Below are positions 8,454-58,965 of a stretch of DNA of 64,000 nucleotides, piece by piece; the stretch's first letter is position 1, and the number at the start of each line of letters is the position of its first letter. The notes beneath the pieces were generated by a model. It did no database searches and was not told the DNA's origin. It saw only the letters and a program-made list of their open reading frames with translations. Location: the IMG/VR virus record IMGVR_UViG_3300042863_001217; one strand, given 5' to 3'. Position numbers and translations under genes: made by a program. This DNA comes from a virus (taxonomy: Duplodnaviria; Heunggongvirae; Uroviricota; Caudoviricetes).

Positions 8454-9117
8454 TTGCTCATTGGGCTCAGTGGAGCTCTTCAAATAATATCCGACCCGGC
8501 GGAGACATAGCACCGGGGCTTTTAATTATATCATGGGAGGCTTTGACACCTCCGTGCCCACACCAGACCTGACTAGTTTGGTGTTGTGGGATCCAGGGAG
8601 CTGACAGGGCTGTGGGAGCCTCTGGAGTGTGTATGTGTTAGCGTTCGCGTTTGACTCATCTCCTGGCGCACCGCAACACCAATGAACGATACTAATAAGC
8701 GCTATATATCTGATCCCCTGGGGACCTTACTGGATACGAGTTCGTTTTAAATTGTGGGGTTTGGTATTCTTACCACTTTTTACCACTTTATACCACTAAA
8801 TACCATAACGGGGCTTAAAACCTTAAAAGGGCTTAAAAGAGACGCTAAGGCGCTCCATTGGTGGTGGGACCATTACCATTTTTGTCTATTGGTATATCTG
8901 GTCTTTATTGCCCATACTATATAAGGGATTGCTAGAAGGATTACTATGTATATCATATTGGTTTATCTGGTATCTGGGTTAGGGTTTGAGTTTATCCTTA
9001 TCCCTTTGGAATTATCTTATATCTATCTAGTCTATTAGGATATGGTGTTTATTGTGTTGGTAGCGCGCGTTTTGGTTATGCTGGTTTTGATGGAAATAAT
9101 TGGGTTGGGTTGCGTGC

Positions 9118-9147
9118 AAAAAAAAGACCTCTTAATTAGAGGCCTTC
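9118..9147 (-). terminator. Rho-independent terminator (minus strand)
   Basis: Minus strand reads AGGCCTCTAATTAAGAGGTCT followed by TTTTTTTT, just downstream of the stop at 9172. Confidence 0.55.
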
Positions 9148-9171
9148 TGTGTGTGTATTGTGTGTGTTTGA

Positions 9172-9861
9172 TTATACGCTATAACCTTCACCTTTTAAAT
9201 AGTCTGTAACATCGTTAAGTGCATCTTCAAATCCTTTAGAAGATTCAACACCAGCATTAGGTCCCCATTCTTGATCCATCCAATCTTCTAATGAAGACCA
9301 CATACTATCTTTCCAGTCTTTGTTTTTTGGAAATTCATCCATAAATTCATCTCCAATATTATAAGAGTCAATATCAGACCATTTTTTCTTTTCGTTTAAT
9401 GTTTTAGAAAATTGTTCGAATAGTTTAATGTGTTTCATTCCGTGTTTGGTACTCGATGTGTTTGATTCATTAATATCGTATCCATCCCAGTCCCATTTGT
9501 AACCTTTACCATCAGCAGCTGTACCTTGATAACCATACATTCCTTTTGTAAATCCATCAAAGAATATAGCAACTCCATTGTCTTCAAGCTCTTGAGCTTT
9601 TTCTCTTGCAGCATCTTCATCGATGGCTTCAACTGTAACATCACCATTGTATACTATGTATAAGATTCCTTTATCAAATGTTAATTCAGCTCCATGGAAC
9701 CATTCTTCACCATCATTTTCTTCGTCATTCATTGGTTCTTCACCCATTTCGAAGTTAGGTATTTGTGAGAGTCCAAATTTTAGAGCCTCTTTTTCTGTTT
9801 TATAGAAATTTACTTGAGAATAATCAGGTGCATTTTCTGCTACGTAATATACTTTTGCCAT
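9172..9861 (-). CDS. Hypothetical protein with an internal in-frame copy of the conserved MKHIKLFEQF leader
   Basis: 229-aa ORF. Residues ...STKHG-MKHIKLFEQFSKTLNE... lie mid-protein. This could be two genes fused in frame, or an alternative start. Confidence 0.45.
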   Translation of the reverse strand: MAKVYYVAENAPDYSQVNFYKTEKEALKFGLSQIPNFEMGEEPMNDEENDGEEWFHGAELTFDKGILYIVYNGDVTVEAIDEDAAREKAQELEDNGVAIFFDGFTKGMYGYQGTAADGKGYKWDWDGYDINESNTSSTKHGMKHIKLFEQFSKTLNEKKKWSDIDSYNIGDEFMDEFPKNKDWKDSMWSSLEDWMDQEWGPNAGVESSKGFEDALNDVTDYLKGEGYSV

Positions 9862-9878
9862 TTTATTTTTATTTTATT

Positions 9879-10565
9879 TTATTTATCTAACATTGCATTC
9901 TGCAATTCTTTAAGTTTTGCTTCAGCTTCTTTTTGTCCTTTTTCTGTTTTTTTATAGACCTCTTTTTTTTCTTTAACATTATCACAACCAATCTTATAAT
10001 CACTACAAGAATATTGTGCTCCTGTTAAAGAATGTGCTGCTTCACTAAATGCTGCCCCAGCATTTTTGTACTCAGTAATGTAATATGAAAGCCAAGCTTT
10101 AGTTTCTGCAGAAAAATCTTTGCTTATTTTTTGCATTTTATCTTCAAGTTTTTTTGCATTAACTTCATTTTCATCTTCGATAGCTTTGTCTCTTTTAGCA
10201 AGACCGTCCATCATTCTTTCTTCTTCAGCTGGACAATTGTTTTTCATATAAGACCATCTAAAAGATTGTCTACTATTTATGAGCGTGTTATATTTGTTTA
10301 TAAATTTAGCAAGTTGACCATATTCCTCTTTGGCATCAGCTCCACCTTGTAGTTCTGCTAATTCACCTTCCATTTCAACTTTCTGTGCATCCAAGTCTGA
10401 TAATTGAAGCTCAGCTTCATCTTCATCCATGTCTCCTTTTTCTACAGCAGACTGAATTTCTTCCATTCTATCATCAAGTTCAGTTAGATCATTTTGAAGA
10501 TCTTTGATTTTTTTGTCATTACTAGCCTCACCAATAAATTGTTCAAATAGTTTAATATGTTTCAT
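9879..10565 (-). CDS. Leader-family protein (MKHIKLFEQFIGE...), coiled-coil rich
   Basis: Conserved N-terminal decapeptide. Acidic coiled-coil body. Confidence 0.6.
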   Translation of the reverse strand: MKHIKLFEQFIGEASNDKKIKDLQNDLTELDDRMEEIQSAVEKGDMDEDEAELQLSDLDAQKVEMEGELAELQGGADAKEEYGQLAKFINKYNTLINSRQSFRWSYMKNNCPAEEERMMDGLAKRDKAIEDENEVNAKKLEDKMQKISKDFSAETKAWLSYYITEYKNAGAAFSEAAHSLTGAQYSCSDYKIGCDNVKEKKEVYKKTEKGQKEAEAKLKELQNAMLDK

Positions 10566-10600
10566 GTTTGTATTTTGTTTTTATTTTTGTTTTTATTTAA

Positions 10601-11344
10601 TTAGTCCCAAACTTCAGTGTATGTACCACCTACTAACATTACTCCTTGTTGCCAATCAAAATCTAAACGATCCTTTTTGAACATGTAATGTAATTTAATA
10701 ATAGATTCAGTTTCTTCTTCTGATAAACCTAATGCAATATTAAGATCTTTTATTTTGTATGCTTTATCGTAAGATTTTGTGATGTGTACTGATGCTTGAC
10801 TTCCGTAACCTTGATCTCTTGATCCAATTTGTTTATACTCTGCTTTATCTGCTTTCCAAAATGCAAGTATACGTTGGATCATATCGCTGGTTAGAGCTTC
10901 TTTTTGTGTAGATTTAATCCAATTTTTAATATCTTTAGCGAAATTAACTTTCTTTGGATTTGATACATCAATTGCTGTGTAATAATTTATGTAATCTTGT
11001 CCAGATACACCTATACTAGCTCTACCTGGTTTTGGTTGTGCTTTACTAATAACTTCAAAATACGTATAAGAAGCTTTAATATACATTGGACTTATATTAC
11101 AGTCTTGTAATATCTTTGCTCGTTTTTTGTCAATCCATGACCAATCAGGAGCCTCATATGAATTAGTTATTTGCACATATCCATTACTGTAGTCATATGT
11201 TTTAGAATCTTTACCACCTCTTTGGTAACCTACATCTGAAAGGTTTGATAATAAAGCTTTTTCGAAATCTTGTACTAATGCAACTTCTTCAGGATTTACT
11301 TCACCTTCATTAATGAATTGTTCAAATAATTTAATCTTCTTCAT
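10601..11344 (-). CDS. Leader-family protein (MKKIKLFEQFINEG...)
   Basis: Conserved N-terminus. 247 aa. Confidence 0.6.
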   Translation of the reverse strand: MKKIKLFEQFINEGEVNPEEVALVQDFEKALLSNLSDVGYQRGGKDSKTYDYSNGYVQITNSYEAPDWSWIDKKRAKILQDCNISPMYIKASYTYFEVISKAQPKPGRASIGVSGQDYINYYTAIDVSNPKKVNFAKDIKNWIKSTQKEALTSDMIQRILAFWKADKAEYKQIGSRDQGYGSQASVHITKSYDKAYKIKDLNIALGLSEEETESIIKLHYMFKKDRLDFDWQQGVMLVGGTYTEVWD

Positions 11345-11354
11345 ATCTGTTTTA

Positions 11355-11903
11355 TTATTTTGCGTCTATTGATAAGAATAGGCTTTGTCTAATCTCTATG
11401 TTGTTTTGACCAACACTCGACATATATTCTCCTGCTATGATAGTTTCAATTCCAGATACTAATGCGTCGTTTTGCATTCCACTTAGTTTTCTTACATATT
11501 TACCAGCATCTACATCATCTGCAAATCCAACGTTAATTACAAAATCACTAGGAATTCTAACGAATAACTCTGTACCATCTGGTCTATTAAGACCATTAAT
11601 TTGATCATCTACCCATTCTTGTTTGCTTAATGCAGCCATAATATAAACAATAGCTTCTTTATCTTTGACTTGTTTCATAACTTCGTCAGCAATAATCTCA
11701 GCTCCTTCTTTATCAGCCCATTTTGACCAAACTTGATTAATTTCTTTAAGAGTATCTTGAACGTCTCCTTCAAATTTTATTTTTTCAACCTCTTTTTTAA
11801 ATGCAAATAACACTTTTCCAGCGATACCTTTAGCACCATACATACCTGTCATTTGATATGCTTTTTCATTTACGAATTGTTCGAATAATTTAATGTGTTT
11901 CAT
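11355..11903 (-). CDS. Leader-family protein (MKHIKLFEQFVNEK...)
   Basis: Conserved N-terminus. 182 aa. Confidence 0.6.
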   Translation of the reverse strand: MKHIKLFEQFVNEKAYQMTGMYGAKGIAGKVLFAFKKEVEKIKFEGDVQDTLKEINQVWSKWADKEGAEIIADEVMKQVKDKEAIVYIMAALSKQEWVDDQINGLNRPDGTELFVRIPSDFVINVGFADDVDAGKYVRKLSGMQNDALVSGIETIIAGEYMSSVGQNNIEIRQSLFLSIDAK

Positions 11904-11906
11904 GTT

Positions 11907-12224
11907 CTATTTAGATATTTTATTCTTGCTTTCAAATTCAGTTACTTTAGCATATGCCGAAGACTTCATATCGCCTTTTGCTTTTTTAACAAGTTCTGCG
12001 AACTCTTTAGCTGTTTTCATGTCTGGAAATGGAAGTGAAGTTGTATAATCTGGTCCACTATATACATCAAATGGTGCATATTGATCATATTCTTGTTCTG
12101 TATAAACTCCAAATTGATCACTTTCTATATCAATGATGTTTTCTTTTTTAATAGGAAGGAATACTATCCATTCTTGAGATTTTCCTTCTTTTACGAATTC
12201 TTCATATAATTTTGCGTACTTCAT
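11907..12224 (-). CDS. Leader-family protein (MKYAKLYEEFVKEG...)
   Basis: Conserved N-terminus. 105 aa. Confidence 0.55.
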   Translation of the reverse strand: MKYAKLYEEFVKEGKSQEWIVFLPIKKENIIDIESDQFGVYTEQEYDQYAPFDVYSGPDYTTSLPFPDMKTAKEFAELVKKAKGDMKSSAYAKVTEFESKNKISK

Positions 12225-12817
12225 TATGTCATTTTTGGGTATTTTTTCTTAATTTCTTTATAGAATTTCTTGTAGTTTGTACCAGACATGTGATCTTCAG
12301 CTGCTCTAAGCAAATCTTCTAAAGAAGTCCACATTGTATTTGCTAATTGGTCTTGTGTTGTTGAAACTTGAGCCATTCTGTCTAGAATAGAATCAATTAT
12401 TTCAGGATTTAAAACAGTTTCAGTGCTAGGTTTTTCTGGACCCGCTGCTCTTTTAAGTGTCCACCAATCAACTTTCTTAGGAATAGTGTATGAAACAATT
12501 CCTTTTTGTTGGTCATTTGGACTAATTTGTCCAGGTTTTCCAATATTACTAGTGATTTTATCTAAATCTAAATTATCATCAAAACCTTTTAATGCTTTCT
12601 GAATATCTTTAGTTAGATCCACATCTGCCATATTTGGCTCGGTTCTAAGATATATCATTGAAGTCGATGACATGTTAAATTCAACGCCTTTTACTTTAGA
12701 AAGCTCTTTCTTAAATTGTTTTTGATACTCATCAACATCTAACCCATTATTATATCCTGGGAAAATATCCATCTTAGCTTCATTAATAAATTCTTCGTAT
12801 AGTTTTATGTACTTCAT
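12224..12817 (-). CDS. Leader-family protein (MKYIKLYEEFINEA...)
   Basis: Conserved N-terminus. 197 aa. Start overlaps the neighbouring stop (ATGA). Confidence 0.6.
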   Translation of the reverse strand: MKYIKLYEEFINEAKMDIFPGYNNGLDVDEYQKQFKKELSKVKGVEFNMSSTSMIYLRTEPNMADVDLTKDIQKALKGFDDNLDLDKITSNIGKPGQISPNDQQKGIVSYTIPKKVDWWTLKRAAGPEKPSTETVLNPEIIDSILDRMAQVSTTQDQLANTMWTSLEDLLRAAEDHMSGTNYKKFYKEIKKKYPKMT

Positions 12818-13101
12818 TATTTCTTTTTTATGTTTTTACCATTTGGTGTTAATTCTCCGTTATCATCCATCACCGTAAAATGTTCTCTCGAATTTCCTTG
12901 TGTTAATTCTATAGATAAACCTTTGTTCATACCACCTGATTCAGTTGAAGACCACAATCTAACTACAGTCCAAATACCTTTTTCACCTTCAACTTTAACC
13001 TTATCCCATGTCTTAACTTCAGTTTGATCAGTAAATGATTTTATTAATTTATCTTCATTAGACTCGTTAATAAAATCTTCGTATAGTTTTGCATATTTCA
13101 T
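12817..13101 (-). CDS. Leader-family protein (MKYAKLYEDFINES...)
   Basis: Conserved N-terminus. 94 aa. Confidence 0.55.
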   Translation of the reverse strand: MKYAKLYEDFINESNEDKLIKSFTDQTEVKTWDKVKVEGEKGIWTVVRLWSSTESGGMNKGLSIELTQGNSREHFTVMDDNGELTPNGKNIKKK

Positions 13102-13122
13102 TTGATTGTCTGTATTATTTTA

Positions 13123-14004
13123 TTATATATCATAATCTTCTATTGTTTCAGGACGAGTCCATCTTCTAAGATCACCTATCCAATCTTCTAATCTATAAGG
13201 GTGTTCCCAATATGGTGGTTTAGGTATGGTTAGTTTAGGTACTTTTAATCTATCACCATCTCTGGCTTCTAACCATTTGGTTTTCTTTTTAAGCTTTTTT
13301 ACTATTTGTAGTAGAGTTACTTTGTCTTCAGAGTGCAGCGCCCATTCACCATTAATAGGTAAAAGATCATGACGAGTACATGCTAATGCAATTGATTCTA
13401 CTCTTGTAAAGATTCTTATTTGAGTTCCAGGTTCAACGATAGTTATTGCTTGTTGATTCTTGATTTGATTTTCCCATATACCTAAGACAGTTGCGTATGC
13501 ACCTTCTGTAATTTGTCCAGGTCCATATGCATTAAAGAAATAAAATATGTGTGATTTAAGATTGCTCCATTTTTGGTGCTTTTTAATAAGATCTACATTT
13601 TGTTTTTTGTACCAACTATATGGTGAAAGATCTTGATCTTTTTGTCCAAAATGTGATGAAGATGCTGAATAAATTAGGATTGCATTTTGATTTATAGCTA
13701 ATCTTATAATTTGACTAGTTCCTTCAACACATGAAGATTGCACCTTTTCTATTTCTTGATATGATTGATGTATACGAGAATATTCTCCAAAGTGGTAGAT
13801 TTTATCAATCTCAAATCTTTCTAGTAATCGAAGAGCATCTTGAGTTCTACCTTCTATATACTGTACACCTTGAATATGATTAGATTTTAGGCCAGTAGAA
13901 TAATCATCTAGTGAAACTATTTTTGTATGCGGTTTCTCAGTAAGCAATGACTTAATAAGATGTGTTCCGATGAATCCTGCTCCTCCTGTTACTAATGTAT
14001 ACAT
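13123..14004 (-). CDS. NAD-dependent sugar epimerase/dehydratase
   Basis: N-terminal Rossmann motif VTGGAGFIGTHL. Confidence 0.7.
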   Translation of the reverse strand: MYTLVTGGAGFIGTHLIKSLLTEKPHTKIVSLDDYSTGLKSNHIQGVQYIEGRTQDALRLLERFEIDKIYHFGEYSRIHQSYQEIEKVQSSCVEGTSQIIRLAINQNAILIYSASSSHFGQKDQDLSPYSWYKKQNVDLIKKHQKWSNLKSHIFYFFNAYGPGQITEGAYATVLGIWENQIKNQQAITIVEPGTQIRIFTRVESIALACTRHDLLPINGEWALHSEDKVTLLQIVKKLKKKTKWLEARDGDRLKVPKLTIPKPPYWEHPYRLEDWIGDLRRWTRPETIEDYDI

Positions 14005-14011
14005 ATTTTAA

Positions 14012-14788
14012 TTATTTAGTTCCTAGCCAACTGTAATATTCTCTCCATCCATGCTTGACTAATGTAAATTGTTTAGGATCTCTTAAATATGTTAGATCAA
14101 AAATCTTTTCATCGCTTCCAATAAAATTCCTATCTAAGCAAAAACCTATTGTCTTATTTATCTCATTCATGTACCAATCTATTTTCCATGCTGGACAAAC
14201 GAATGCTCCACCTTGTATATGTCTTTGTTGTGAAAGAGTGTGCCATTCTGGATCTGGTATTGCAAAATCTAAATTGTGTGTAAAATGCATTATAGTATCC
14301 ATTGATAGTTTTTCTATATTAGGCCAAGTTTCTGGATAATCCATATCTTCTCTAATACCACCTGCATCTACCCATATTAAATGAGTTGCGTCTTTATGTA
14401 ATTTAAGTGCTTCATTTAAAAAGAAGATCTTATTGAACATTACTATATTATATAAAGGATAATTCATTTCAGGTACATGATCCCAATGTCTTTTCTTTAA
14501 AAATTCATCATCATGCATAACTTGATCTATTTTAGTGAACCAAGTCTTGTATGCTTCTAAATCTTCTATTGAGTTTATTACGTATGTGGTCATTTCTCCA
14601 GTTGGATCTACTTCAGATCTCATCTGTCTAATTCTTTCTTCGAACTTAGATTCTGTAAAAACCACCATATTAGCCCTAAGACTAAGTGCTCTTTGCATCC
14701 AATGTAAATATGTGTGATATGATTGTGCGAAATCTTTCCATTCAGATCTACCAATATCATAAAGTGCCGTAATAACTAATGGTTTCAT
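14012..14788 (-). CDS. Hypothetical protein in the glycan island, possible sugar transferase
   Basis: 258-aa ORF sitting between the epimerase and the putative glycosyltransferases. No firm motif. Confidence 0.3.
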   Translation of the reverse strand: MKPLVITALYDIGRSEWKDFAQSYHTYLHWMQRALSLRANMVVFTESKFEERIRQMRSEVDPTGEMTTYVINSIEDLEAYKTWFTKIDQVMHDDEFLKKRHWDHVPEMNYPLYNIVMFNKIFFLNEALKLHKDATHLIWVDAGGIREDMDYPETWPNIEKLSMDTIMHFTHNLDFAIPDPEWHTLSQQRHIQGGAFVCPAWKIDWYMNEINKTIGFCLDRNFIGSDEKIFDLTYLRDPKQFTLVKHGWREYYSWLGTK

Positions 14789-14801
14789 TGCTAAATTTTA
14801 T

Positions 14802-15536
14802 TTATATCCAAGACCACTCTACTCTAATGCCCTTATGTTTAATATGTATCTTATCTACATCAAAATGATTTGATCTACTTTGATTATTAAAAATAGTGTC
14901 AAGTGTAAATCCGTCTTTATTTAATATAGTTGGCACAAATCCTTCAGAATATCCATGTACACCATTTAGTAATAAATCTGTTATGTGACGTAGACTTTTA
15001 TTTGAGAATCTAACAATTGGAAAGAATGATCCAAATAATTCACCATTTTTATTGATTTGGTCACCATCACCTGGAAATCTATCAAACCATAATGTATTAC
15101 TGTATGTGTTAGCATCAATTTCGGGAATGTTAGGTTGACTAGTCACTCCTTTGTTCTTAAATATGTAATAAGAAATAAAATCAGTATTGTTATTTTCAAA
15201 TGCTTTAAAGAATTCTGACCAATTATCACATACTAAGTCATCATCCATAAACCAATACCAATCTTCATTGGGATTAAGCATATAATAATATGCCATTCTA
15301 AGATGTGCATAGAACCAAATAATATTTCTATTACCTTGTTGATTCCACCAATGTAATTTACTAACATCACTTCTAAAATTAAAAAGATCTCTTACTTTTT
15401 GTTCATCATATTCTATTCCAATAGGTGCTCTATCAGATAAAAATTCAAAGTCAAAATCTACAGTTTTCCAATACGATTCATATGATTTAAATGTATTAGC
15501 ACATGTACATACTATTGTTTTAGACATATTGTTCAA
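14802..15536 (-). CDS. Putative glycosyltransferase (DxD-like motif WFMDDDLV)
   Basis: Acidic DDD motif typical of GT-A fold enzymes. Context only. Confidence 0.3.
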   Translation of the reverse strand: MNNMSKTIVCTCANTFKSYESYWKTVDFDFEFLSDRAPIGIEYDEQKVRDLFNFRSDVSKLHWWNQQGNRNIIWFYAHLRMAYYYMLNPNEDWYWFMDDDLVCDNWSEFFKAFENNNTDFISYYIFKNKGVTSQPNIPEIDANTYSNTLWFDRFPGDGDQINKNGELFGSFFPIVRFSNKSLRHITDLLLNGVHGYSEGFVPTILNKDGFTLDTIFNNQSRSNHFDVDKIHIKHKGIRVEWSWI

Positions 15537-16341
15537 TTATTTTTTCATTCCATTCAGGAATTCTATTATATTGATGTGCAATTTTGTACACTATGTTGTT
15601 TGAGTCAATCAAAACATTTTCTTGTAATTTAGGTAAACCATATTTTTTATCAATAGCTTTTCCTAAACCCCATTCTATATGTTGAAACGTAGGACCTGAT
15701 AATGAACAGTGAACTACCCAACCTTCATTAGGTTTAAAGATTTTACAATTATCAATTAAGTTCTTATAAATTAAAATATTAAATGCAGCTTGATCCCTTA
15801 TATCATGGCCTTTTAATGAACCATCTACTAAGTGTTGTTGCATTCTTAATGTTTTTACTAATGAATCTTTTTTACCACACATTACTCCACTACAAACCAC
15901 CTCATATTGTCTAATAAAATCTACATATTCTGGAAATGCTTTATTCATAACATCCATATTCCAAGGCTCTTCATTATGTAATACACCTTCTGATCCAGCA
16001 AAGAAATCATATTTGTCTAGTTCTAACATTTCAAATGGATCTGCTTGAAAGCAAACGTCAAATACATCGGTTACCATAAATAAATCATAAGGACTATTCT
16101 CTATCCAATTTGCAGTATGAATTAATCTACTATCATTAATTGTTAATCCTGGATCTGATTCAATAGCATGGAATTTAATTCCATTTAGATTTAAAACATT
16201 TCTATCTTGAGCATTCATATCAGCTCCAATAAGTACTACTTCACCGTCTTTTACATGTTTTTTAAAACTATTAGCCCAAACCCTAATTTTATCGATATTA
16301 TTGGTTACATTGTTGCTAACTCCTGTTAATACTTTTTTCAT
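15520..16341 (-). CDS. Hypothetical protein, possible nucleotide-sugar transferase
   Basis: 273-aa ORF in the glycan island. Confidence 0.3.
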   Translation of the reverse strand: MKKVLTGVSNNVTNNIDKIRVWANSFKKHVKDGEVVLIGADMNAQDRNVLNLNGIKFHAIESDPGLTINDSRLIHTANWIENSPYDLFMVTDVFDVCFQADPFEMLELDKYDFFAGSEGVLHNEEPWNMDVMNKAFPEYVDFIRQYEVVCSGVMCGKKDSLVKTLRMQQHLVDGSLKGHDIRDQAAFNILIYKNLIDNCKIFKPNEGWVVHCSLSGPTFQHIEWGLGKAIDKKYGLPKLQENVLIDSNNIVYKIAHQYNRIPEWNEKIIEQYV

Positions 16342-16342
16342 T

Positions 16343-16975
16343 TTAACAATTATGTAATTTATGTGTCAACATTTCATTTACACCAAATATTGTAGGCCAA
16401 CTATACTCTAGTGCCCATATTTGTGGATCGTTTCCATGTGCTCCTCCAGAAAATGAAGAAGTTGATATATTTTTTGCTATACTTTCCATTAGTTTTACGT
16501 AAAAATCTAATGATCTTTTCTTAATTTGATCTTTCTTTACAATACATTGCATACCACCTATAAACATAAATGGCAATTTATATTCAATTTCCATTTTTTC
16601 ACAGTAATCAATAGCTTGCTTAATACAACCATCATTATCTCTGATATAAGTTGGTCCAATTGGATAAAATGGTTTTGTAAAATCACAATCATTGATAAAT
16701 TCTACACAAGTTTCACAATCATGTTCGAATGGATTTCCTTGTAAGAATATTGTGTAATCAGCTAAATTGTACCAATTTGTTACAATATGATGTAGGTGTG
16801 TATGCGCATCTTTACCATAATTTAACAGATTTCTTTCAAATAAATGATTATCTGCTGCATTTTTATTGTAAATAGTTACTTTATACTTAAGTTTTTTTGT
16901 CCAAGATACATCTTCATTGTATTTAGCAACAACTGCTTCTATTGTCATAAAACTCTTTCTATTTTTGTACACCAA
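16343..16975 (-). CDS. Hypothetical protein
   Basis: 210-aa ORF in the glycan island. Confidence 0.35.
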   Translation of the reverse strand: MVYKNRKSFMTIEAVVAKYNEDVSWTKKLKYKVTIYNKNAADNHLFERNLLNYGKDAHTHLHHIVTNWYNLADYTIFLQGNPFEHDCETCVEFINDCDFTKPFYPIGPTYIRDNDGCIKQAIDYCEKMEIEYKLPFMFIGGMQCIVKKDQIKKRSLDFYVKLMESIAKNISTSSFSGGAHGNDPQIWALEYSWPTIFGVNEMLTHKLHNC

Positions 16976-18192
16976 CCTTTTGATGCGCTATGTGGCCAAA
17001 CAATCCACTTATATGGTTTTGGTCCTTGCAAGTCTACATGAATGTGTATCCAATCACCAGGTTGTTGTAATTTCTGAGAAATCTCATGGTCGTTTAAATC
17101 CTTTCTATAAACTGAAGTACCATCTTCTGATTCCATAATCACTGCACAAAAAGTGTAGTCTGTTTCAGTAAGCACAGATCTATGCACATCTATAATGTGT
17201 TTGAATATATGATGAAAACTATTATCATAATCTTCTACATGAGGATTAGGTGCAAGTTTATTAGATGTGGTCCATTGTTGTACTGCACGATCTCTAAGTC
17301 TAATACCTGCGTATCTTTCCCAATCTGCAATAGTTCTAACTCTACCTAATCCATATTTACCATAAATATCTTCTTCTGAATCAAATGACTCTCCATCAAT
17401 TCCTAATAGTTTACGAGTTTTTTCATGAGTTCTTGTGTTTCTCTTACCCCATTCTGAATCATCATCCCATTGTTTAGTTCTACCTTTACGAGTATATTCA
17501 TGCCACGCAATAATTTTATGTGGATGGAATAAATCATATCCGTGTGTAAATGCTCTAACTGCAATAGTAATCTCTTCACCATGAAAATAGAATTCTGGAT
17601 CATGTTGTACCTCTATTGCAAATTGACCTACTGTAAATGCGAAGTGTGCTGAATAAAATCTTGAAGGAATTGGTTCTGTCATATTTTCCCATCCTGGAAT
17701 TGTAGCAGGTAAAAAGAATATTACACCTTCTGGAGTAAATCTATCAAAATTCATTAACCATGGTGCTTGAGTTCTGCCCTTTGGATCGATTTCTGGATTA
17801 TATGATGAAATATAGCTTGTAAGTAATGGTTTAGCATGACCTTTAGCTTGTAAACCCCTTAGCATATTAATCAATTCAGTGTCCCAGTTTCTAATAAACC
17901 TATGATGACTATCTAATTGAAATGTATAAGTTTCACCTTGATAAAGTTGTTGAATGCTATTTCGTGCCCAACATGCTCCAGTTGAATCTTTATAATTTAC
18001 ATCTAAAATTCTAAATCGCGAATCGTTTTTATATTGATCTAATGTATCCCATGTATCTTCTTCGGAATGTTGCCAACATATACCAAATCTAAGACGATCT
18101 GGAAATTCAGCGTTTAGTAAACAATCCTTAAGAGTATTCAATAACTCTGGATCTCTGTAACTTGCAATTTGAATAAATATGGTTTCTTCCAT
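16945..18192 (-). CDS. Putative GT-A glycosyltransferase (GlcNAc-transferase-like)
   Basis: The N-terminus IFIQIASYRDPEL resembles the Pfam 'GlcNAc' transferase family. This is from memory only. Confidence 0.35.
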   Translation of the reverse strand: MEETIFIQIASYRDPELLNTLKDCLLNAEFPDRLRFGICWQHSEEDTWDTLDQYKNDSRFRILDVNYKDSTGACWARNSIQQLYQGETYTFQLDSHHRFIRNWDTELINMLRGLQAKGHAKPLLTSYISSYNPEIDPKGRTQAPWLMNFDRFTPEGVIFFLPATIPGWENMTEPIPSRFYSAHFAFTVGQFAIEVQHDPEFYFHGEEITIAVRAFTHGYDLFHPHKIIAWHEYTRKGRTKQWDDDSEWGKRNTRTHEKTRKLLGIDGESFDSEEDIYGKYGLGRVRTIADWERYAGIRLRDRAVQQWTTSNKLAPNPHVEDYDNSFHHIFKHIIDVHRSVLTETDYTFCAVIMESEDGTSVYRKDLNDHEISQKLQQPGDWIHIHVDLQGPKPYKWIVWPHSASKGWCTKIERVL

Positions 18193-18244
18193 ATGATATA
18201 ATAGTTTTAATTGTTATATTATATATCGGGTTTTTGTTTATAGC

Positions 18245-18295: not shown

Positions 18296-21016
18296 TTATG
18301 GTGCTATAGGATCTTCTTTTCTATTGTGTGTAATTATACCATTTGCTACGTATACATCATTAGACTCTACGTCTAATTTATAAACTTTAAATGATCCACT
18401 ATTTTTTACAATAGAAGTAATTAGATGTTCATATCCATCTTGATTAATAAATGAATCGCCAACTAAAATATCATTAGCTTTCATTACAGACCATACTGAA
18501 TTTCTTTTTATAATATGCACGTGATCTTCACTTGAAGTTAATAAACCATCATTAAAACTTAACACGCTATTTACAATGTGTTCAGTATTTTGAGTAACTG
18601 TAGCCGATGTATTAGATAAAGTTGGATTTGTTTGAGACCATTGTATTAAATTCTGATAATTATCTCCATCTGGCATATTACCTATTATCATTGAAGATAA
18701 TTCCATACCAATTGTTAACGATTCTATTGTAGCGTGAGTACCGTTTGATAATTTAACTAAAGTTCCTTCTAGTAAACATCCTCCTGGAGTTCCGGCACAT
18801 AATTCAAATATAGTATACTCAGGTGGTGTTGTATCAGGCTGAACTAATCTCCAACACGTTCCAGATGCATCGTCTACATATACTAATTGATCAAGATTAT
18901 ATAAATCACTATATGGTCCCACATACGAATATACACCTCCATCATTTCTTTCTGCTAACCATGATCTATATACAGTTGGAGTAGGTTTATCTGGTGTTGC
19001 TGTAGGATTTGGAATATATTCGCTGTAACTACATCCAAATTCACTTGTACATCCAATAGTTTGGTCAATTACGAAAATATCATCTGAAATTATAAATACC
19101 ATTTCTGATGAGTCCCATGTACTTGGCACTGAACTACTACATACTGAATATACTGCTCCAGATCTTCCATTATAATAATAAGGTGAAGCTAGCATTTCAT
19201 TAAATGTTCTTTGTATATAACTTCCAAAATTATAACCTAATCCATATCTAAATATGTCCACTGTATCAGCTACCCATACATGATAACATGTACCCGAAGG
19301 TGCATCAGTTGGTCTCGGAGTTGATGTCGGAGGAACTAAGGTCGGTTCTGGTATATATGTAGTTGGTGTTGGTGGAATCGGTGTTGCTGTTGGATAACCT
19401 GCACCTGCACCCGAAGATGAATAACATTGAGATCCAATTTGTGTTATAATAATATTTTGATAATATGCAATTGCTTTTACACATAAAACAACAGGTTGAG
19501 AATATGGTGTTAAATACACTGTATCACTTCTACCATCACACATTGTATATTGTATGTAACCACTATTCCAACTATCTGTTAATTGAAAATTATAAGTATA
19601 ACAAGGTACAGCTGTTGCTGTTGGTGGAATTGGCGTTGCCGTTGGTAGGTTTAACGAACTGTCAAGTATTCTTACATTAACTGTATCTAATACAATACTA
19701 CTAGCATTAGTAAGTTTTACAATCAACCATTCATCACCTTCTGTTAAATTATCAGATTTTGTGGTTAATTCAAATACACCTTGACCATTTACACCCGAAG
19801 TAGTAGTAATTACTACATAACCATTGTTGATAGCTTCAACCAAATCACTTGCATTTGCATTATATGGTCCTAATTCCCACCAAAGTGTTGTTGGTGATGC
19901 ATTTAAATATTGTGTGTCAACTACAAATGTAATTTTTACATTTTCTTCATTGACTTGTGTTTTATTAGCAGAAATACTATAAGTAGGTGGAAACCAATAC
20001 TCATCAGTTACATAACCAAGTACACTATCGTAGTATACAGCATATGCTGATCCTGCTTCATAATACCATCCACTGGGCGCTGTTTCACACGTAGCTATAT
20101 AACTATTGTCACATAAAGTTTGTATGCCAGAGATTAAGCCTGTGTTGATCCAGTTACCGTTACTATCAAATGTAACTTGATCGTATCTTCCAACTGGAGT
20201 AGTTGCAGTAGATAAGCCATAATAATAATTACCAGGATATGTTGATGCTAATGAACTTTGTACCATTAATTGTGCATCGTATGAATTACAAATACCTAAT
20301 AAATTATATTCAAAATAAGTTTGATCTGTTGAATTATTAACATCGTCATTTCCACCTGGAACATCATCAGTTATTAAAATAATAAGTTTAATTGCATCAG
20401 ATCTAAATGATCCTGCAATATTATTAGACAATATTTCATTGATCCCTAAACCACCGGGTTCTGGCGCACCTTGACCATATCCTAAAGGAAAACTAGGTGT
20501 AGCTAATAAATTAAGTTTTGTTTGAAAATCAGTAATTGAACCAACATTACCTAATGGTTGCATACATGTAATAAATTGAGTTCTATTATTAAATGTGTTT
20601 ATCACAGCTTTTTGTGATGCTGGTAAATTTAAGTATATAGATGTCTGTCCATAGTTGTTTGACGGTGGAGATGTTAGATTACCGGCATATTCATCAAATA
20701 TGCAAAGTCCTACTCTATAATTACCTAATGATTCACTATCGATAGTACTTAAAATATTAGCAATACCAGCTTTAACACCATTGATTGCACCGTCCATAGA
20801 TCCAGTATAGTCAACTAAAAATACTATATCTAACCCTGTAGTACATTGAGTTGGAATAGTTAATTTATTTTGGTTTATAGCTAGACCATTTGTAGAATAA
20901 GTCTTAAAAACATTTGAATTGTTAATATTATTAGGACTTAATGGATCATAAGCTAAACTTACAAAACTAGTCGGTGGTACACAAGATTGCCCATATGAGC
21001 TTACAGATAATGCCAT
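18296..21016 (-). CDS. vWA-domain protein with C-terminal Hint (Hedgehog/intein-like) domain and PT-rich linkers: 'Vint'-like structural/adhesin protein
   Basis: vWA MIDAS motifs DIVFLVDYTGSM and LIILITDDVPGG. C-terminal ~150-aa module starts GG|CLLEGTLV and ends ...ANGIITHN, then 8 more residues. Confidence 0.6.
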   Translation of the reverse strand: MALSVSSYGQSCVPPTSFVSLAYDPLSPNNINNSNVFKTYSTNGLAINQNKLTIPTQCTTGLDIVFLVDYTGSMDGAINGVKAGIANILSTIDSESLGNYRVGLCIFDEYAGNLTSPPSNNYGQTSIYLNLPASQKAVINTFNNRTQFITCMQPLGNVGSITDFQTKLNLLATPSFPLGYGQGAPEPGGLGINEILSNNIAGSFRSDAIKLIILITDDVPGGNDDVNNSTDQTYFEYNLLGICNSYDAQLMVQSSLASTYPGNYYYGLSTATTPVGRYDQVTFDSNGNWINTGLISGIQTLCDNSYIATCETAPSGWYYEAGSAYAVYYDSVLGYVTDEYWFPPTYSISANKTQVNEENVKITFVVDTQYLNASPTTLWWELGPYNANASDLVEAINNGYVVITTTSGVNGQGVFELTTKSDNLTEGDEWLIVKLTNASSIVLDTVNVRILDSSLNLPTATPIPPTATAVPCYTYNFQLTDSWNSGYIQYTMCDGRSDTVYLTPYSQPVVLCVKAIAYYQNIIITQIGSQCYSSSGAGAGYPTATPIPPTPTTYIPEPTLVPPTSTPRPTDAPSGTCYHVWVADTVDIFRYGLGYNFGSYIQRTFNEMLASPYYYNGRSGAVYSVCSSSVPSTWDSSEMVFIISDDIFVIDQTIGCTSEFGCSYSEYIPNPTATPDKPTPTVYRSWLAERNDGGVYSYVGPYSDLYNLDQLVYVDDASGTCWRLVQPDTTPPEYTIFELCAGTPGGCLLEGTLVKLSNGTHATIESLTIGMELSSMIIGNMPDGDNYQNLIQWSQTNPTLSNTSATVTQNTEHIVNSVLSFNDGLLTSSEDHVHIIKRNSVWSVMKANDILVGDSFINQDGYEHLITSIVKNSGSFKVYKLDVESNDVYVANGIITHNRKEDPIAP

Positions 21017-24934: not shown

Positions 24935-26239
24935 TTATACTACGTTTAGTGTTAATGCACCAGATAGAGGTTGGTCAAATACTTCATATAAAGTGTATGC
25001 ATTTCCTAAATGTGTGAAATCTAATTTAGATACAAATGTAAATGGAATTCCATTCGCAGCATCTGCGAATTTAGCTGTCGTTACATAGTCAGTTGTACTA
25101 ACTGATTTTGGAATTGCAATGTAATATCTTTGTGAAGAAGCCACATTAGCCGCAAAATACAATGTACCGTTAGGTATTTCAGTATTATTTATAGCACTAA
25201 ATGTATCAAAATAAATTTGTTCTACATTATTAGCAGTTCCTTCATTCGCTAACATATCGACAAATACTAAATCAAAATTAGTTGTAGTTGTATTATCGTT
25301 TAAGTAATAATCAGAAGAAGGTGTAGTTAATGAATTAACTCCTGGATAACCTCCATTTCCGTTCCAGTGGAACCAGAATGTAGATGATCCTTCAGGAACT
25401 GGCGTTGCAGTCGGTTCTGGAATTGAAGTTGCAGTCGGTGCAGGAACTGGCGTTGCAGTCGGTTCTGGAATTGAAGTTGCAGTCGGTGCAGGAACTGGCG
25501 TTGCAGTCGGTGCAGGAATAGCTGTCGCTGTAGGTGCAGGAACTGGCGTTGCAGTCGGATCTGGAATTGCTGTCGCTGTAGGCGCAGGAACTTCAGTCGC
25601 TGTAGGATCTGGAACTGGCGTTGCAGTTGGGATCACTTCAGTCGCTGTAGGATCTGGAACTGGCGTTGCAGTCGGGATCACTTCAGTTGCTGTAGGTACA
25701 GGAACTTCAGTCGCTGTAGGATCTGGAACTGGCGTTGCAGTCGGGATCACTTCAGTTGCTGTAGGATCTGGAACTGGCGTTGCAGTTGGATCTGGTATAG
25801 CTGTTGCTGTAGGTGCAGGAACTGGCGTTGCAGTCGGGATCACTTCAGTTGCTGTAGGATCTGGAACTGGTGTTGCAGTCGGAATAATCGCAGTCGCAGT
25901 TGGCAAAATTGTTGCCGTAGGAACAGGAACTGGTGTTGCAGTAGGTGGTATAGGTGTAATATCAGTAACAAATAAAGTATTTGAAACGGTTTCACATAAA
26001 TTAGAGTCAATTATTTTAACTTTATATTGACCCGGTGCTAAACCACTATTACCCGTATTATCGGTTGCATTACCAAATGTAAACGTATTGGATACAATGT
26101 TATTGACAGGATTTTGAAATGTCGGATATGCATTGTTAGGTATCGGTTGATTTGTACCTGCGTTCAGTAAAGTATATTGGTAAGGTCCGACTCCTCCAAC
26201 TACTTGTACTGTAACTGTTCCATTATTAATGTTTGCCAT
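24935..26239 (-). CDS. Pro/Thr-repeat protein (PTATPVPDPTATEVI...) with globular N- and C-terminal domains
   Basis: About 170 aa of PT-rich tandem repeats. Confidence 0.55.
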   Translation of the reverse strand: MANINNGTVTVQVVGGVGPYQYTLLNAGTNQPIPNNAYPTFQNPVNNIVSNTFTFGNATDNTGNSGLAPGQYKVKIIDSNLCETVSNTLFVTDITPIPPTATPVPVPTATILPTATAIIPTATPVPDPTATEVIPTATPVPAPTATAIPDPTATPVPDPTATEVIPTATPVPDPTATEVPVPTATEVIPTATPVPDPTATEVIPTATPVPDPTATEVPAPTATAIPDPTATPVPAPTATAIPAPTATPVPAPTATSIPEPTATPVPAPTATSIPEPTATPVPEGSSTFWFHWNGNGGYPGVNSLTTPSSDYYLNDNTTTTNFDLVFVDMLANEGTANNVEQIYFDTFSAINNTEIPNGTLYFAANVASSQRYYIAIPKSVSTTDYVTTAKFADAANGIPFTFVSKLDFTHLGNAYTLYEVFDQPLSGALTLNVV

Positions 26240-28935: not shown

Positions 28936-29664
28936 TTATTGTTTTTTTGCTGCTAGTTGTTCTTGAATCCAACGTTTACCTAATGGATTTTGAACTGGTG
29001 TACCCAAGTTTCTGTTAATTTGCTTTTCGGCTTGATCTAATAGATCTTCACCATATGCTGAATTATCAACAATTAACATTTTATCAGATCCAAATAGTTT
29101 TTGAAAGTGACCTAAGTTATTTTGAACTTCTTTCCACATTTTTTCAACCATTTTATCTTCTAACTTTCTTTCTCTCATTTGATTTCGCTCTAATGCAACT
29201 TCTAATGATGTATTAACGAAAACCATATATGTATCATAACCTAAGTTTTGATAAATATCTCTAGTTTTACTAATCTTATCAAAATCTTTACCAGTTCCAT
29301 CAATTACTTGACCTAATCTAGAATTTAAATAGTTATTTTGAAGTCCTCTGGTCAAGTTTTTAGCTTTATCTCTAATAACCATAACTTCAGCCCATTTTTC
29401 AGGATCTTTTGCTAAATCTGCAAGATCTCCTGCATTATATCCAGCATCTTTTAAGCCTTTTTCGAATGCATTATCGTTATTAACTAATTTAAGTCCAGTT
29501 GCATAAGACACTGAACCTACTTTTCCTTTTGGAAAATCAAAAAGTTCTGTTGCAACATAAGATTTACCACTTCCTGGTCCACCTGCCATAAAGAATGCCT
29601 TAAGGATTCCTGGATCATATACGCCCTCGCTTACAAATTCTTCAAATAATTTGATATATTTCAT
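28936..29664 (-). CDS. Leader-family P-loop kinase-like protein (MKYIKLFEEFVSEG...)
   Basis: Conserved N-terminus followed by a GGPGSGKSYVA Walker A motif, as in nucleotide/nucleoside kinases. Confidence 0.55.
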   Translation of the reverse strand: MKYIKLFEEFVSEGVYDPGILKAFFMAGGPGSGKSYVATELFDFPKGKVGSVSYATGLKLVNNDNAFEKGLKDAGYNAGDLADLAKDPEKWAEVMVIRDKAKNLTRGLQNNYLNSRLGQVIDGTGKDFDKISKTRDIYQNLGYDTYMVFVNTSLEVALERNQMRERKLEDKMVEKMWKEVQNNLGHFQKLFGSDKMLIVDNSAYGEDLLDQAEKQINRNLGTPVQNPLGKRWIQEQLAAKKQ

Positions 29665-29755: not shown

Positions 29756-30133
29756 CTATTTTGCTATAAAAGCCGAAGTTGTTTTTTCACCATTTCTTAA
29801 AAGATTAGCAACTCTAGAATATCCATCTAATAAAACACCATCAACGACAACTATTTCTAATGAAAGATCTCTTGGACTTACATCGTCATCAGTGTAACGT
29901 TCTTCTCCTGAATCATAATATTCTTTAAAATCAGGATCGGTTTTTAATAAAGACTTCATATCAAAATCATCTACGTTTGCAAATGTTCTACCAACAATAT
30001 CTTTTTTAAATCCATTTGGAATATTTTCTTTTTCAGGTGTAATATCTTTAATATGTCTCCATACTTCTGATCCCTTTAAATCATTATATTCATTTAAATT
30101 GTTGTAGTCTTCATATGTTTTAACGTGTCTCAT
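29756..30133 (-). CDS. Degenerate leader-family protein (MRHVKTYEDY...)
   Basis: Weak match to the N-terminal pattern. Confidence 0.4.
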   Translation of the reverse strand: MRHVKTYEDYNNLNEYNDLKGSEVWRHIKDITPEKENIPNGFKKDIVGRTFANVDDFDMKSLLKTDPDFKEYYDSGEERYTDDDVSPRDLSLEIVVVDGVLLDGYSRVANLLRNGEKTTSAFIAK

Positions 30134-33649: not shown

Positions 33650-34615
33650 TTAGTTAATATACATATTCAATTCAAATTTATCGTTTCCTCTATTATAAAT
33701 TTGAACATGTAAAGATTTCTTTTGTTCCTTATCGTTTTTAAAAAGTGTTAAGGTATCTTTTTTGGTTTTACCATCATTTGGTTTAAAGAATGCATCTATA
33801 TAAGCATCACCGTATTCTTTAGGATCTAATGTATATCCTTGAGAATTAGCATATATTTCAACTGCATTAATAGCTGAGGAATAGAGATTGTGATAAACTG
33901 GATAGTCATCTTTCTTCTCATTAACTACGCTTTCTTTTAAACCTAATTCTTTGTGTAATACTGACATGAATGGTCCAAAATTATGTGTACCGTATTCATC
34001 GATCAATACCTTAGCAACTGCTAATGCAAAATCAGTGTATGACAAAGAGTCATCAATTTTAATAATTGCTGAATCAATTCCTTTTGCTAATGCATCAGAA
34101 TTTTTAGATTCACTAATATAAACGAATTTATCGCCTTTGAATGCTTTATTTAAATCTTTAAGTAAATCTTCTGGTCCAGTGTGTTCTGCTGTTGAAAACC
34201 ATTTACCTCTGTATTGAAAATCTCCATCATAATCAACTTTAACCATACCATCATCTGAGAATATAAATGCATTTTCATCATCTTCCCAATCAACTGTGAT
34301 TTTCTTTTCTTTAATACCATCAACACCATCCATTGCATCATGAACTGCGTTTAGATTGTCCACCGCTCCAGTGATTTGAGAAAACATCCAAGATTCTAAT
34401 TTTTGACCGCCTTTCATGCGATCTCCGATCATTTCAGCATAATCTTCAATTCTTTCTAATTGACCTAAAGTCATATTATTTAATTCAGTAAGAGTATCAC
34501 CTTCTTCAGTAATTGATTTTTCTGACATATAAAATGCAGCATACTGTTCTCTTGACATATTCTGCTGAGAAGCAGCAATATTTAGATAATCGTCGAATAA
34601 TTTAACTATTTTCAT
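33650..34615 (-). CDS. Degenerate leader-family protein (MKIVKLFDDYLN...)
   Basis: Internal KESVVNEKK motif. Confidence 0.5.
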   Translation of the reverse strand: MKIVKLFDDYLNIAASQQNMSREQYAAFYMSEKSITEEGDTLTELNNMTLGQLERIEDYAEMIGDRMKGGQKLESWMFSQITGAVDNLNAVHDAMDGVDGIKEKKITVDWEDDENAFIFSDDGMVKVDYDGDFQYRGKWFSTAEHTGPEDLLKDLNKAFKGDKFVYISESKNSDALAKGIDSAIIKIDDSLSYTDFALAVAKVLIDEYGTHNFGPFMSVLHKELGLKESVVNEKKDDYPVYHNLYSSAINAVEIYANSQGYTLDPKEYGDAYIDAFFKPNDGKTKKDTLTLFKNDKEQKKSLHVQIYNRGNDKFELNMYIN

Positions 34616-36119: not shown

Positions 36120-36152
36120 ACTATAAATATTTTTTTAATTATATTATATATC

Positions 36153-58817: not shown

Positions 58818-58891
58818 AACTATTTTTAAAAAAGTTACGAACAATTGCATATTAAACCAAAAAGACCCATCGAATGATGAGTCTTCTTTAG

Positions 58892-58965
58892 TGGAGGTGA
58901 CAGGAATCGAACCTGCGACCCTCTGCGTGCAAGGCAGATGCTCTAGCCAACTGAGCTACACCCCC
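58892..58965 (-). tRNA. tRNA-Ala: tRNA-Ala (anticodon UGC)
   Basis: Manual fold: acceptor stem GGGGGTG/CACCTCC with the G3:U70 alanine identity pair, D-arm GCTCAGTTGGCTAGAGC, anticodon loop CTTGCAC, T-arm GCAGGTTCGATTCCTGT, discriminator A. CCA is not encoded. Confidence 0.85.

Follow-up and report, generated by a model that had tools for sequence, protein, structure and literature searches.

Why should seven consecutive minus-strand genes of one phage, whose proteins are otherwise unrelated, carry almost the same 13 residues, in six of them as the very start of the protein? The question is raised by positions 9172-13101, here called cluster A, of a 64,000-nt stretch of the virus record IMGVR_UViG_3300042863_001217 (IMG/VR, Caudoviricetes). 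This whole stretch is hereafter the window; it corresponds to ~175-239 kb of a 260,917-bp metagenomic phage contig (ENA ERZ27272104 k141_203066). The answer which we consider probable, on the basis of sequence comparison, is that the 13 residues, hereafter the tag, form a propeptide at the N-terminus which targets proteins to the capsid, and that in a large uncultured clade of T4-related phages they correspond to the capsid-targeting sequence (CTS) of phage T4.

Tagged genes were detected by a regular-expression scan and then by a position-specific scoring matrix (PSSM), which was trained on 118 independent tag copies from other contigs and had a background of ~0.14% at internal Met positions. 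By the PSSM, 16 of the 88 genes in the window were tagged at the N-terminus, and the pattern across the window genes was MK[HKY][IVA]KL[FY]E[EQD]F[IVL]xE. Together with an internal copy in gene g015 the total was 17 tagged genes, located in three clusters at 9.2-13.1, 28.9-36.1 and 43.9-45.5 kb (clusters A, B and C, respectively), in good agreement with the about 18 genes in three clusters counted in a first-pass annotation of the window, made from the letters alone. The same annotation had noticed the nearly identical starts on consecutive minus-strand genes, and all seven open reading frames (ORFs) of cluster A were found in place. Six of them do start with the tag and fit MK[HKY][IA]KL[FY]E[EQD]F[IV]xE, but g015, which had been counted as the seventh, carries its copy internally. 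In addition, what had been described as a decapeptide is a conserved unit of 13 residues.

Synonymous sites varied between the DNA copies of the tag, and the 45 nt on the 5' side of the tagged genes were A-rich and without conservation. Among 238 non-redundant copies, codon choice inside the tag tracked that of the gene bodies at synonymous sites, apart from small deviations (CAC for His, CTA for Leu, and more AAA). Pairwise BLASTP among the 17 tagged bodies of the window gave E-values above 0.05 throughout. Given the synonymous variation, the unconserved upstream DNA and the dissimilar bodies, the tag is a peptide conserved on unrelated proteins, and is neither a duplicated block of DNA nor the mark of a paralogue family. 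The first-pass annotation had argued against a duplicated DNA block from synonymous differences, and the codon variation and the upstream DNA bear this out. Its statement that the bodies are unrelated agrees both with the BLASTP values and with the 115 body clusters of tagged ORFs found elsewhere; the single paralogous family, which it had held up against its own proposal, was seen neither in the body clusters nor by BLASTP.

Outside the window, a degenerate DNA form of the tag pattern matched at least 120 stretches of IMG/VR contigs, ~4-256 kb in length. In those loci 280 of 1470 ORFs were tagged, and it was their bodies that fell into the 115 clusters. Core replication and nucleotide genes (DNA polymerase, ribonucleotide reductase, helicase, primase and clamp) were never tagged in the tag loci. 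In 185,579 bacterial and archaeal genomes only one match to the tag pattern was obtained. It came from a Woesearchaeota metagenome-assembled genome and was rejected as a true tag, being in a non-phage context with a guanine-cytosine (GC) content of 45% and looking like chance. The tag is confined to viruses. Islands of tagged genes differed in content between relatives. For example, the island convergent with a g014-type RecA/KaiC-like ATPase gene held three tagged genes in locus L060 (4979-6216), five to six in L019 (6618-10415) and seven in the window (9172-13101), with no bodies in common.

The consensus of the tag was M K H/K/Y I/V K L F/Y E Q/E/D F I/V/L N E, with A/S/K/G in the next position; an example form is MKHIKLFEQFINE. 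The four most conserved positions were F7, F10, I/V/L11 and E13, and directly after E13 conservation fell to background. Of 126 copies which had not been chosen by the search pattern, 118 had I/V/L at position 11, 109 had E at position 13, and 64 had A/S/G at position 14, where Ala was the commonest. These counts, and the point at which conservation stops, bear out the earlier suggestion that the tag ends in an I/V/L-x-E site of cleavage type. The tag was located at the first ATG of the ORF in 259 of 288 occurrences. In two confident AlphaFold2 models, g018 and g017, with a mean predicted local distance difference test (pLDDT) of 88.7 and 87.3, respectively, the tag had pLDDT below 50 and lay outside the fold; in the model of g018 the residues below 50 were 1-6, 8-10 and 18-21. 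The amphipathic-helix moment of the tag was not significant (p=0.08). A Sec or lipoprotein signal peptide was not recognized in it either, as K2, K5, E8 and E13 break up the hydrophobic residues, whereas such a peptide has an unbroken hydrophobic core of ~10 or more residues behind a basic N-region. A looser form of the motif, aromatic-xx-aromatic-[ILVM]xE anywhere in residues 1-16, was only weakly enriched at N-termini (2.8-3.7% against 1.6-2.1% at internal Met) and was not relied on.

In T4, the CTS is MKTYQEFIAE. The first 10 residues of the internal protein IPIII suffice for uptake into the head. Targeting has been mapped to residues 4 and 7 and processing to residues 8 and 10, and Asp at position 10 of the CTS blocks cleavage with targeting kept (PMC9026906). 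The protease gp21 cleaves after L/I-X-E, a specificity first observed as a Glu-Ala bond (PMC9026906). It works inside the prohead, and T4 propeptides are given as 10-19 or 10-20 amino acids (aa) long (PMC5694885). The internal proteins of T-even phages are a diverse set with the CTS alone in common (PMC3012670). When T4 Y4-Q-E-F7-I8-A-E10 was aligned with tag F7-E-Q-F10-I11-N-E13, the mapped T4 positions fell on the four most conserved positions of the tag; the alignment is a match of pattern. The likeness to the T4 sequence, pointed out in the first-pass annotation, is borne out by this equal spacing of F7, F10, I/V/L11 and E13 against Y4, F7, I8 and E10. Like the tag, the T4 sequence (in IPI, IPII and IPIII, and in the propeptides of Alt and gp24) stands at the extreme N-terminus, consists of aromatic-x-x-aromatic-aliphatic-x-Glu, has an L/I-X-E end with a small next residue, and is carried by mature proteins which are mutually unrelated. 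Some related contigs have short tags of 10-11 residues (MATFKEFLNE, MNFQDFLNE, MIKNFNQFLNE), almost superimposable on MKTYQEFIAE. There were also differences. The tag has 13 residues against 10 in T4, with an extra conserved MK.[IV]KL, and Val is common at its aliphatic position. In addition, at least 17 tagged genes were present in 64 kb here, compared with a handful in the whole T4 genome.

A head-maturation protease gene was found beside or near a tagged gene in nine tag loci. An IMG/VR search with this protease gave 389 relatives, of which 80 were retained. The retained set includes three contigs of ~235 kb, which are the closest large relatives, as well as many contigs with tag loci; in at least 15 contigs a tag locus was accompanied by a protease locus. 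On one of the three ~235 kb relatives, L258 (234 kb), Pfam recognized Portal_T4 (4.6e-70), Peptidase_S77 (44.7 bits, cut-off 27) and Gp23 (5.5e-41), in addition to a TnsA-like nuclease domain, presumably the counterpart of T4 gp4, and a gp15-like protein. The genes were ordered as portal, a small gene, a fusion of protease and scaffold, the major capsid protein, and a gene of 316-427 aa. To judge from the genes, this order mirrors T4 20-(67/68)-21-22-23, and we take it that the 316-427-aa gene may correspond to T4 gene 24. T4 resembles the tag-bearing relatives of the window phage in portal, S77 protease and Gp23, and in a locus content that differs between relatives, but in the present clade, which is known from genes alone, the protease is fused to a scaffold that bears tag-like repeats.

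The small gene in the slot between portal and protease, i.e., in the position of gp67/68, started with the tag or a variant of it in ~73 of 79 loci, which had been picked by the protease alone. Examples are MKKVRLYEDFIAE followed by D and MKHVKLFEEFLSE followed by E. The variant in the 235 kb relatives, MKIIKTFEEF-TSS-LQE followed by D, has a 3-residue insertion as in the internal copy of g015. The gene on the 3' side of the capsid gene started with M..FE.W[FY]...[IV][NL]E. The capsid protein itself had conserved LINE|S, PIIE|S and KLYE|D sites before the Gp23 domain, which begins at about residue 84. The scaffold part of the fusion was a run of Yxx[YH][ILV]AE repeats ending in FFKFVSE|S or FFTFLNE|S, and the protease-scaffold fusions had 8-13 [FYW][ILVM]xE sites per protein, against ~1.5 in shuffles. 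Since the scaffold is made of tag-like repeats, the tag looks like a single repeat of the scaffold set in front of a cargo protein, and this likeness suggests that the tag joins the scaffold core by mimicry.

The window is linked to this head module through its own proteins, as homologues of g015, g020 and g036 occupy the portal-protease slot of relatives. The slot of locus L246 holds a 327-aa tagged protein, in which residues 127-326, comprising an internal tag and a body, are 72% identical to g020. The gene after it encodes another tagged protein, which shares 53% identity with g036 over residues 1-138 of the latter. Residues 713-810 of g036 match the 213-aa slot protein of L061-type loci. 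The N-terminal domain of g015 recurs, with 37% identity, as the front part of the slot protein in L276, L277, L278 and L281, where it is also fused before a tag. The same domain of ~140 aa thus precedes the tag both in g015 and in L276 (4723-5520), with different bodies after the tag. According to the fusions in g015 and L276, the tag can be internal with a domain on either side.

The longest tagged protein of the window, g036, consists of six or more modules in a row, and every one of these has its homologue within a separate tagged protein of other phages. At the junctions of the modules the sequence is LLESTLNE|A, GDESIDE|A, LESTINE|D, TESLDE|N, GSIDE|A, DESIVNE|H or SKYLNE|A, and two of the junctions coincide with the tag end of the matching free-standing tagged proteins. 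The untagged g046 has five sites that resemble tag ends (LSLNE|A, FESFVGE|S, DESVVNE|G, SESKVNE|S and DESVVNE|G), where 0.63 would be expected (P=0.0015). The junction pattern was also present in g039 and absent from six control proteins. The sites, read from the protein sequences, may fit a polyprotein cargo that is cut at tag remnants. By appearance g036 and g046 are polyproteins, or fusions which arose by recombination at tags. A family of g046-like proteins, 700-890 aa long, was observed in several other loci (among them L059 8384-10984, L034 1245-3623 and L021 8331-11006). Its members have T4-like starts of 10-13 aa, such as MATFKEFLNE, MNFQDFLNE and MIDFNEFSRNLSE, and a conserved ITLKRRYTENHP motif after the tag; their genes have a late-type promoter upstream, and no Pfam match was obtained.

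The motif RATATATAANNNAA was found ~30 nt upstream of 34 of 36 portal genes and 37 of 44 protease genes, and also upstream of other morphogenesis genes, but of none of ~100 replication genes. We take it to resemble the T4 late promoter. In the window it occurred seven times (0.78 expected), each time shortly before a start codon on the minus, i.e., coding, strand. One such site heads cluster A and another cluster B; further ones precede g046, g031 and an operon of sugar transferases. Of the tagged genes, 35% had the motif within 3 kb upstream in the same co-directional run, compared with 12% of the replication genes, an odds ratio of 4.1 (p=3e-6). A scan of cluster A for generic sigma-70 promoters and terminators gave results no better than shuffles.

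All of the computational tests agree with a T4-type capsid-targeting and propeptide tag on unrelated cargo, as had been proposed in the first-pass annotation; packaging, trimming and ejection are what we infer from them. The tagged genes would be transcribed together with the head genes. The tag, chiefly through the aromatic pair F7/F10, would dock the protein on the scaffold core of the assembling prohead by imitation of one scaffold repeat, [YF]xx[YFH][ILV]xE, and a prohead protease of the gp21-type Peptidase_S77 family would cleave after E13. The freed tag would then exit the capsid, and the mature protein would stay inside with the DNA and enter the next host at ejection. Long proteins such as g036 and g046 would in addition be cut at internal tag remnants into separate modules. 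For the broader statement, that the lineage (contigs of ~130-260 kb) uses the 13-mer, a free-standing copy of a scaffold repeat, as a general cargo address, so that any protein which acquires it is loaded, trimmed after Glu13 and injected, we see the chances as evenly balanced.

Several points weigh against this reading. The clade is known from metagenomic sequence and has no cultured member. Tags are present on ~18% of the window genes, including a NUDIX hydrolase and a kinase, which is far beyond the known packaged repertoire of any T4-type phage. The prohead protease, for which a search had been recommended, was found as Peptidase_S77 in tag-bearing relatives but not in the ~165-249 kb of the 260,917-bp own contig that were read. 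The head module of the contig lies outside this region, so the protease is known only from relatives, at 40-65% protein identity, and among the best 120 of 338 protease homologues none came from a contig of 260,917 bp. The name late promoter is given to RATATATAANNNAA by association with head genes only, and only about one third of tagged genes have the head-type motif within 3 kb. In g036 the junction pattern ES.?[ILV][ND]E was counted six times, compared with 0.38 in shuffles, but since the pattern was defined with g036 already in view, this count does not test it independently. For the T4 internal proteins a highly basic character has been described. The tagged proteins had a median isoelectric point (pI) of 5.7, equal to that of untagged genes and without any bias, and with mature pI of 4.6-8.7 and masses of 8-90 kDa they are not the small, highly basic proteins of the T4 type; the cargo here further differs from T4 internal proteins in reaching 811 aa and in comprising enzyme families and chained modules. 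No tag was found in 50 kb around the head genes of Tenacibaculum phage PTm1, the nearest cultured jumbo phage (capsid protein 34% identical), nor in 41.6 kb around those of the uncultured LR756500 (capsid protein 52% identical). Finally, the same phage encodes ClpP and a Clp-type ATPase, which makes an N-terminal degradation signal conceivable. As for the range of the tag, its strict form accompanies mainly the L061-type protease. Around proteases of the type found in L062 and in the ~635-735 kb phages (80 loci), it was carried by only 9 of 1480 genes, and the uncultured LR756501 and LR745206, of ~635-735 kb, had only degenerate starts such as MKHIKRFNE.

The alternative that survives best, unlikely as we think it is, would make the tag a propeptide removed by a protease without any part in loading, either keeping effectors inactive or marking them for maturation in the cytoplasm by the prohead protease or another Glu-specific protease. 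The sharp [IVL]xE boundary with its small following residue and the junctions of g036 and g046 imply only a likely cleavage site, and enzymes such as NUDIX, the kinase and the 2H phosphoesterase would be useful in the producing cell. For cleavage alone, however, [ILV]xE would suffice, yet positions 1-10 (MK.[IV]KL[FY]E.F) are equally conserved in more than 100 families. They include the aromatic pair that matches the T4 targeting residues 4 and 7 (PMC9026906), the scaffold repeats have the same pair, and in T4 gp21 acts within the prohead (PMC5694885).

Somewhat less probable again is a signal for degradation at the N-terminus, read by the phage Clp-type ATPase and ClpP or by host proteases, with the timing of protein removal as its role. 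Genes for a 671-aa double-AAA Clp-type ATPase and for a ClpP of 229 aa do lie ~15-19 kb to the left of the window, and the tag is strictly N-terminal and predicted to be disordered. Such a signal would leave the Glu boundary, the scaffold repeats, the tag of the slot gene and the common head-gene promoter unexplained, and no ClpP homologue was found in ~2.9 Mb of tag- or protease-bearing loci, which are partial. To our knowledge, degradation signals are not usually so long, or so invariant across a wide clade.

We give still less credit to the possibility that the conserved start acts as nucleic acid, whether as an element of translation initiation or early elongation in a host that lacks Shine-Dalgarno sites, or as a short block of homology for shuffling of cassettes. 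The A-rich upstream regions without Shine-Dalgarno sequences, the modest codon deviations within the tag (CAC, CTA and AAA) and the movement of cassettes between tag islands, with fusion at tags, would all suit it. The synonymous positions nevertheless vary freely and mostly follow body usage, the substitutions are conservative (F/Y, I/V/L, E/Q/D), and conservation stops at a residue and not at a nucleotide boundary; shuffling, perhaps a by-product, cannot maintain a peptide. That the motif is the conserved N-terminal domain of one large paralogue family, whose expansion the tandem small genes with identical starts resemble, is extremely improbable in view of the 115 body clusters with differing Pfam families, the lack of pairwise similarity among the 17 bodies of the window, and the two bodies predicted as different, unrelated folds with the tag outside the fold.

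The principle of a capsid-targeting propeptide, to which we thus return, is known from T4, phiKZ-like phages and P1. The phages phiKZ, SPN3US and 201phi2-1 are likewise large and load many different proteins into the head, with processing after Glu in a three-residue motif. Some phiKZ-type substrates have multiple cut sites, and the S80 protease is a distant homologue of gp21 (PMC5694885); a sub-threshold match to Peptidase_S80 was also present in the protease of L258. The phiKZ-type propeptides differ from the tag in being mostly longer than 100 residues, in having no single common peptide and in being cut after S/A/G-X-E. In phage P1, an N-terminal signal of DarB suffices to load this anti-defence protein or a reporter into the myovirus capsid, to be delivered along with the DNA (PMC9024508). 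The DarB signal differs in that it is a unique 30-residue sequence on one protein, with stepwise assembly together with other Dar proteins, and does not resemble the tag. A cellular parallel is offered by the cargo-loading peptides of encapsulins, in which a short conserved terminal peptide on unrelated enzymes docks inside a shell of HK97 fold; these peptides are usually C-terminal, are not cleaved and bind the shell protein rather than a scaffold.

What is new here is the uncultured clade, with hundreds of protease-bearing IMG/VR contigs; a longer, near-invariant tag of 13 residues; the scale, with about one fifth of the window genes and more than 100 cargo families; and the resemblance to scaffold repeats together with the apparent polyprotein cargo. 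A search of the full-text literature gave no earlier description of the tag peptide strings or of capsid targeting in metagenomes. If the capsid-targeting reading is true, the T4 principle would be older and more widespread than the T-even phages. Under the broader statement of a general cargo address, each virion would deliver dozens of pre-made proteins, including enzymes that destroy immune signals and diced polyproteins; candidates are Tad3-like (anti-Thoeris) and Acb1-like (anti-CBASS) proteins and NUDIX hydrolases. Injected proteins act before phage gene expression, and are therefore prime candidates for action against bacterial immunity or for host takeover; otherwise they are found only through proteomics of cultured phages. 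As a loading signal, the 13-residue motif would pick out such proteins directly from metagenomes, where it already marks over 100 families, almost none of them of known function; as a general cargo address it would be a sequence handle for the injected effectors of hundreds or more metagenomic phages. The tag would also offer a second natural capsid-loading peptide for foreign proteins.

As to the identity of the cargo, Pfam analysis of 112 tagged representatives left most bodies without a recognisable family. Among those recognized were Tad3 (anti-Thoeris), with 4.8e-22, and a 2H phosphoesterase with 26.2 bits, just under the Acb1 (anti-CBASS) cut-off of 27; further families were NUDIX, Zeta_toxin/AAA_33, cytidylyltransferase-like, ATP-grasp, Peptidase_C25 and two domains of unknown function. 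In the window, g034 matched Zeta_toxin (8e-10) and AAA_33 (8e-9) and had tagged orthologues in L063, L087 and L099, and no Pfam match was obtained for g040-g043. None of the cluster-A bodies had a match in Pfam or PHROG, the model of g018 had no fold match in PDB or BFVD, and two good structure models with three fold searches gave no function for cluster A. The idea of an arsenal against host defence is in this way supported only in part, by the families tagged elsewhere (Tad3, the 2H protein near the Acb1 cut-off, NUDIX and the Zeta-toxin-like kinase), but cluster A itself, for which it had been put forward, consists of bodies without assigned function. The family of g018 had 124 homologues, with the tag kept in 55 of 55 aligned and the body diverging to 45% identity. 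Homologues of g021, with 58-60% identity, were found in tag islands similar to cluster B in L063, L087 and L126. The coordinates of the features in the window are listed in Table 1.

Table 1. Tagged genes, promoter-like motifs and other features of the 64,000-nt window.
Feature	Position	Strand	Tag or motif	PSSM score	Remarks
Promoter-like motif	13118..13131	-	GATATATAATAAAA		Just 5' of the ATG of g021, the first cluster-A gene
g021, 94 aa	12817-13101	-	MKYAKLYEDFINE then S	32.5	Cluster A
g020, 197 aa	12224-12817	-	MKYIKLYEEFINE then A	40.9	Cluster A
g019, 105 aa	11907-12224	-	MKYAKLYEEFVKE then G	27.6	Cluster A
g018, 182 aa	11355-11903	-	MKHIKLFEQFVNE then K	47.2	Cluster A
g017, 247 aa	10601-11344	-	MKKIKLFEQFINE then G		Cluster A
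g016, 228 aa	9879-10565	-	MKHIKLFEQFIGE then A	43.0	Cluster A; acidic, mature pI 4.7
g015, 229 aa	9172-9861	-	Internal tag variant		Cluster A; N-terminal domain, internal tag variant, 88-aa body
Internal tag copy of g015	Residue 142, nt 9438-9391	-	MKHIKLFEQFSKTLNE, MKHIKLFEQF-SKT-LNE then K		3-residue insertion
Promoter-like motif	36139..36152	-	GATATATAATATAA		Heads cluster B, before g043
g043	35850-36119	-	Weak tag	10.9	Cluster B
g042	35515-35844	-	Tagged	47.2	Cluster B
g041	35170-35508	-	Tagged	41.9	Cluster B
g040	34630-34968	-	Tagged	43.3	Cluster B
g039	33650-34615	-	Weak tag	18.0	Cluster B
g036, 811 aa	30154-32589	-	Tagged	39.9	Cluster B; candidate polyprotein cargo
g035	29756-30133	-	Weak tag, MRHVKTYEDYNNLNE	10.6	Cluster B
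g034	28936-29664	-	Tagged	40.3	Cluster B; P-loop kinase
g055	45033-45521	-	MKHLKKYDQFINE	27.2	Cluster C; NUDIX, 1e-12
g052	43851-44450	-	MKHVKNYTEYLNE	22.5	Cluster C
g046, 1192 aa	36940-40518	-	Untagged by PSSM		Promoter-like motif at 40536-40549
tRNA-Ala	58891-58965	-			Anticodon TGC; only RNA gene found (Rfam)

The same phage was present in ~30 other assemblies, and no close relative was found among 50,697 deposited phage genomes by megablast of 12 kb and tblastn of g017 and g046. The GC content of the window is ~31%, and its genes lack Shine-Dalgarno sequences. Between the convergent genes g014 and g015 there is a gap of ~700 nt (8454-9171) with no convincing ORF and a GC content slightly above that of the surrounding minus-strand block; Rfam and a terminator scan gave nothing in it. 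Next to cluster A, a six-gene sugar operon (g027-g022, 13123-18227, minus strand) was observed, encoding among others a PF11397 N-acetylglucosamine (GlcNAc) transferase, DUF3431, HtrL_YibB and an NAD-dependent epimerase (NAD, nicotinamide adenine dinucleotide). It is headed by the promoter motif of portal and protease type (18214-18227). We assume the PF11397 and DUF3431 families to be mostly eukaryotic. Its products may add sugars to virion proteins or to the DNA late in infection. Two further genes may, from their sequences, encode fibre or adhesin proteins: g030 (24935-26239), with an SprB repeat and proline-rich Cornifin-like repeats scoring below the Pfam cut-offs, and g028 (18296-21016), with a weak intein-splicing-like C-terminus, also below the Pfam cut-off. 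The SprB repeat hints at a host among Bacteroidota.

On a related contig (L103 6707-8386), the C-terminal part of the DNA polymerase is apparently interrupted by an intein-like insert, as read from its sequence. The left flank of the window (L211 10838-20786) encodes two thymidylate-synthase-like proteins, an RNaseH-like protein, the Clp-type ATPase and ClpP; a phage-encoded Clp protease system is unusual. It also has a SIS-domain gene and a CTP_transf_3 gene, presumably KdsD-like and KdsB-like, respectively. The right flank (L129 1-10000) encodes a 494-aa NAMPT/NAPRTase, a phosphoribosyltransferase, a nucleoside 2-deoxyribosyltransferase and a glutamine amidotransferase, a set which looks like the NAD salvage that some phages use against NAD-depleting defences.

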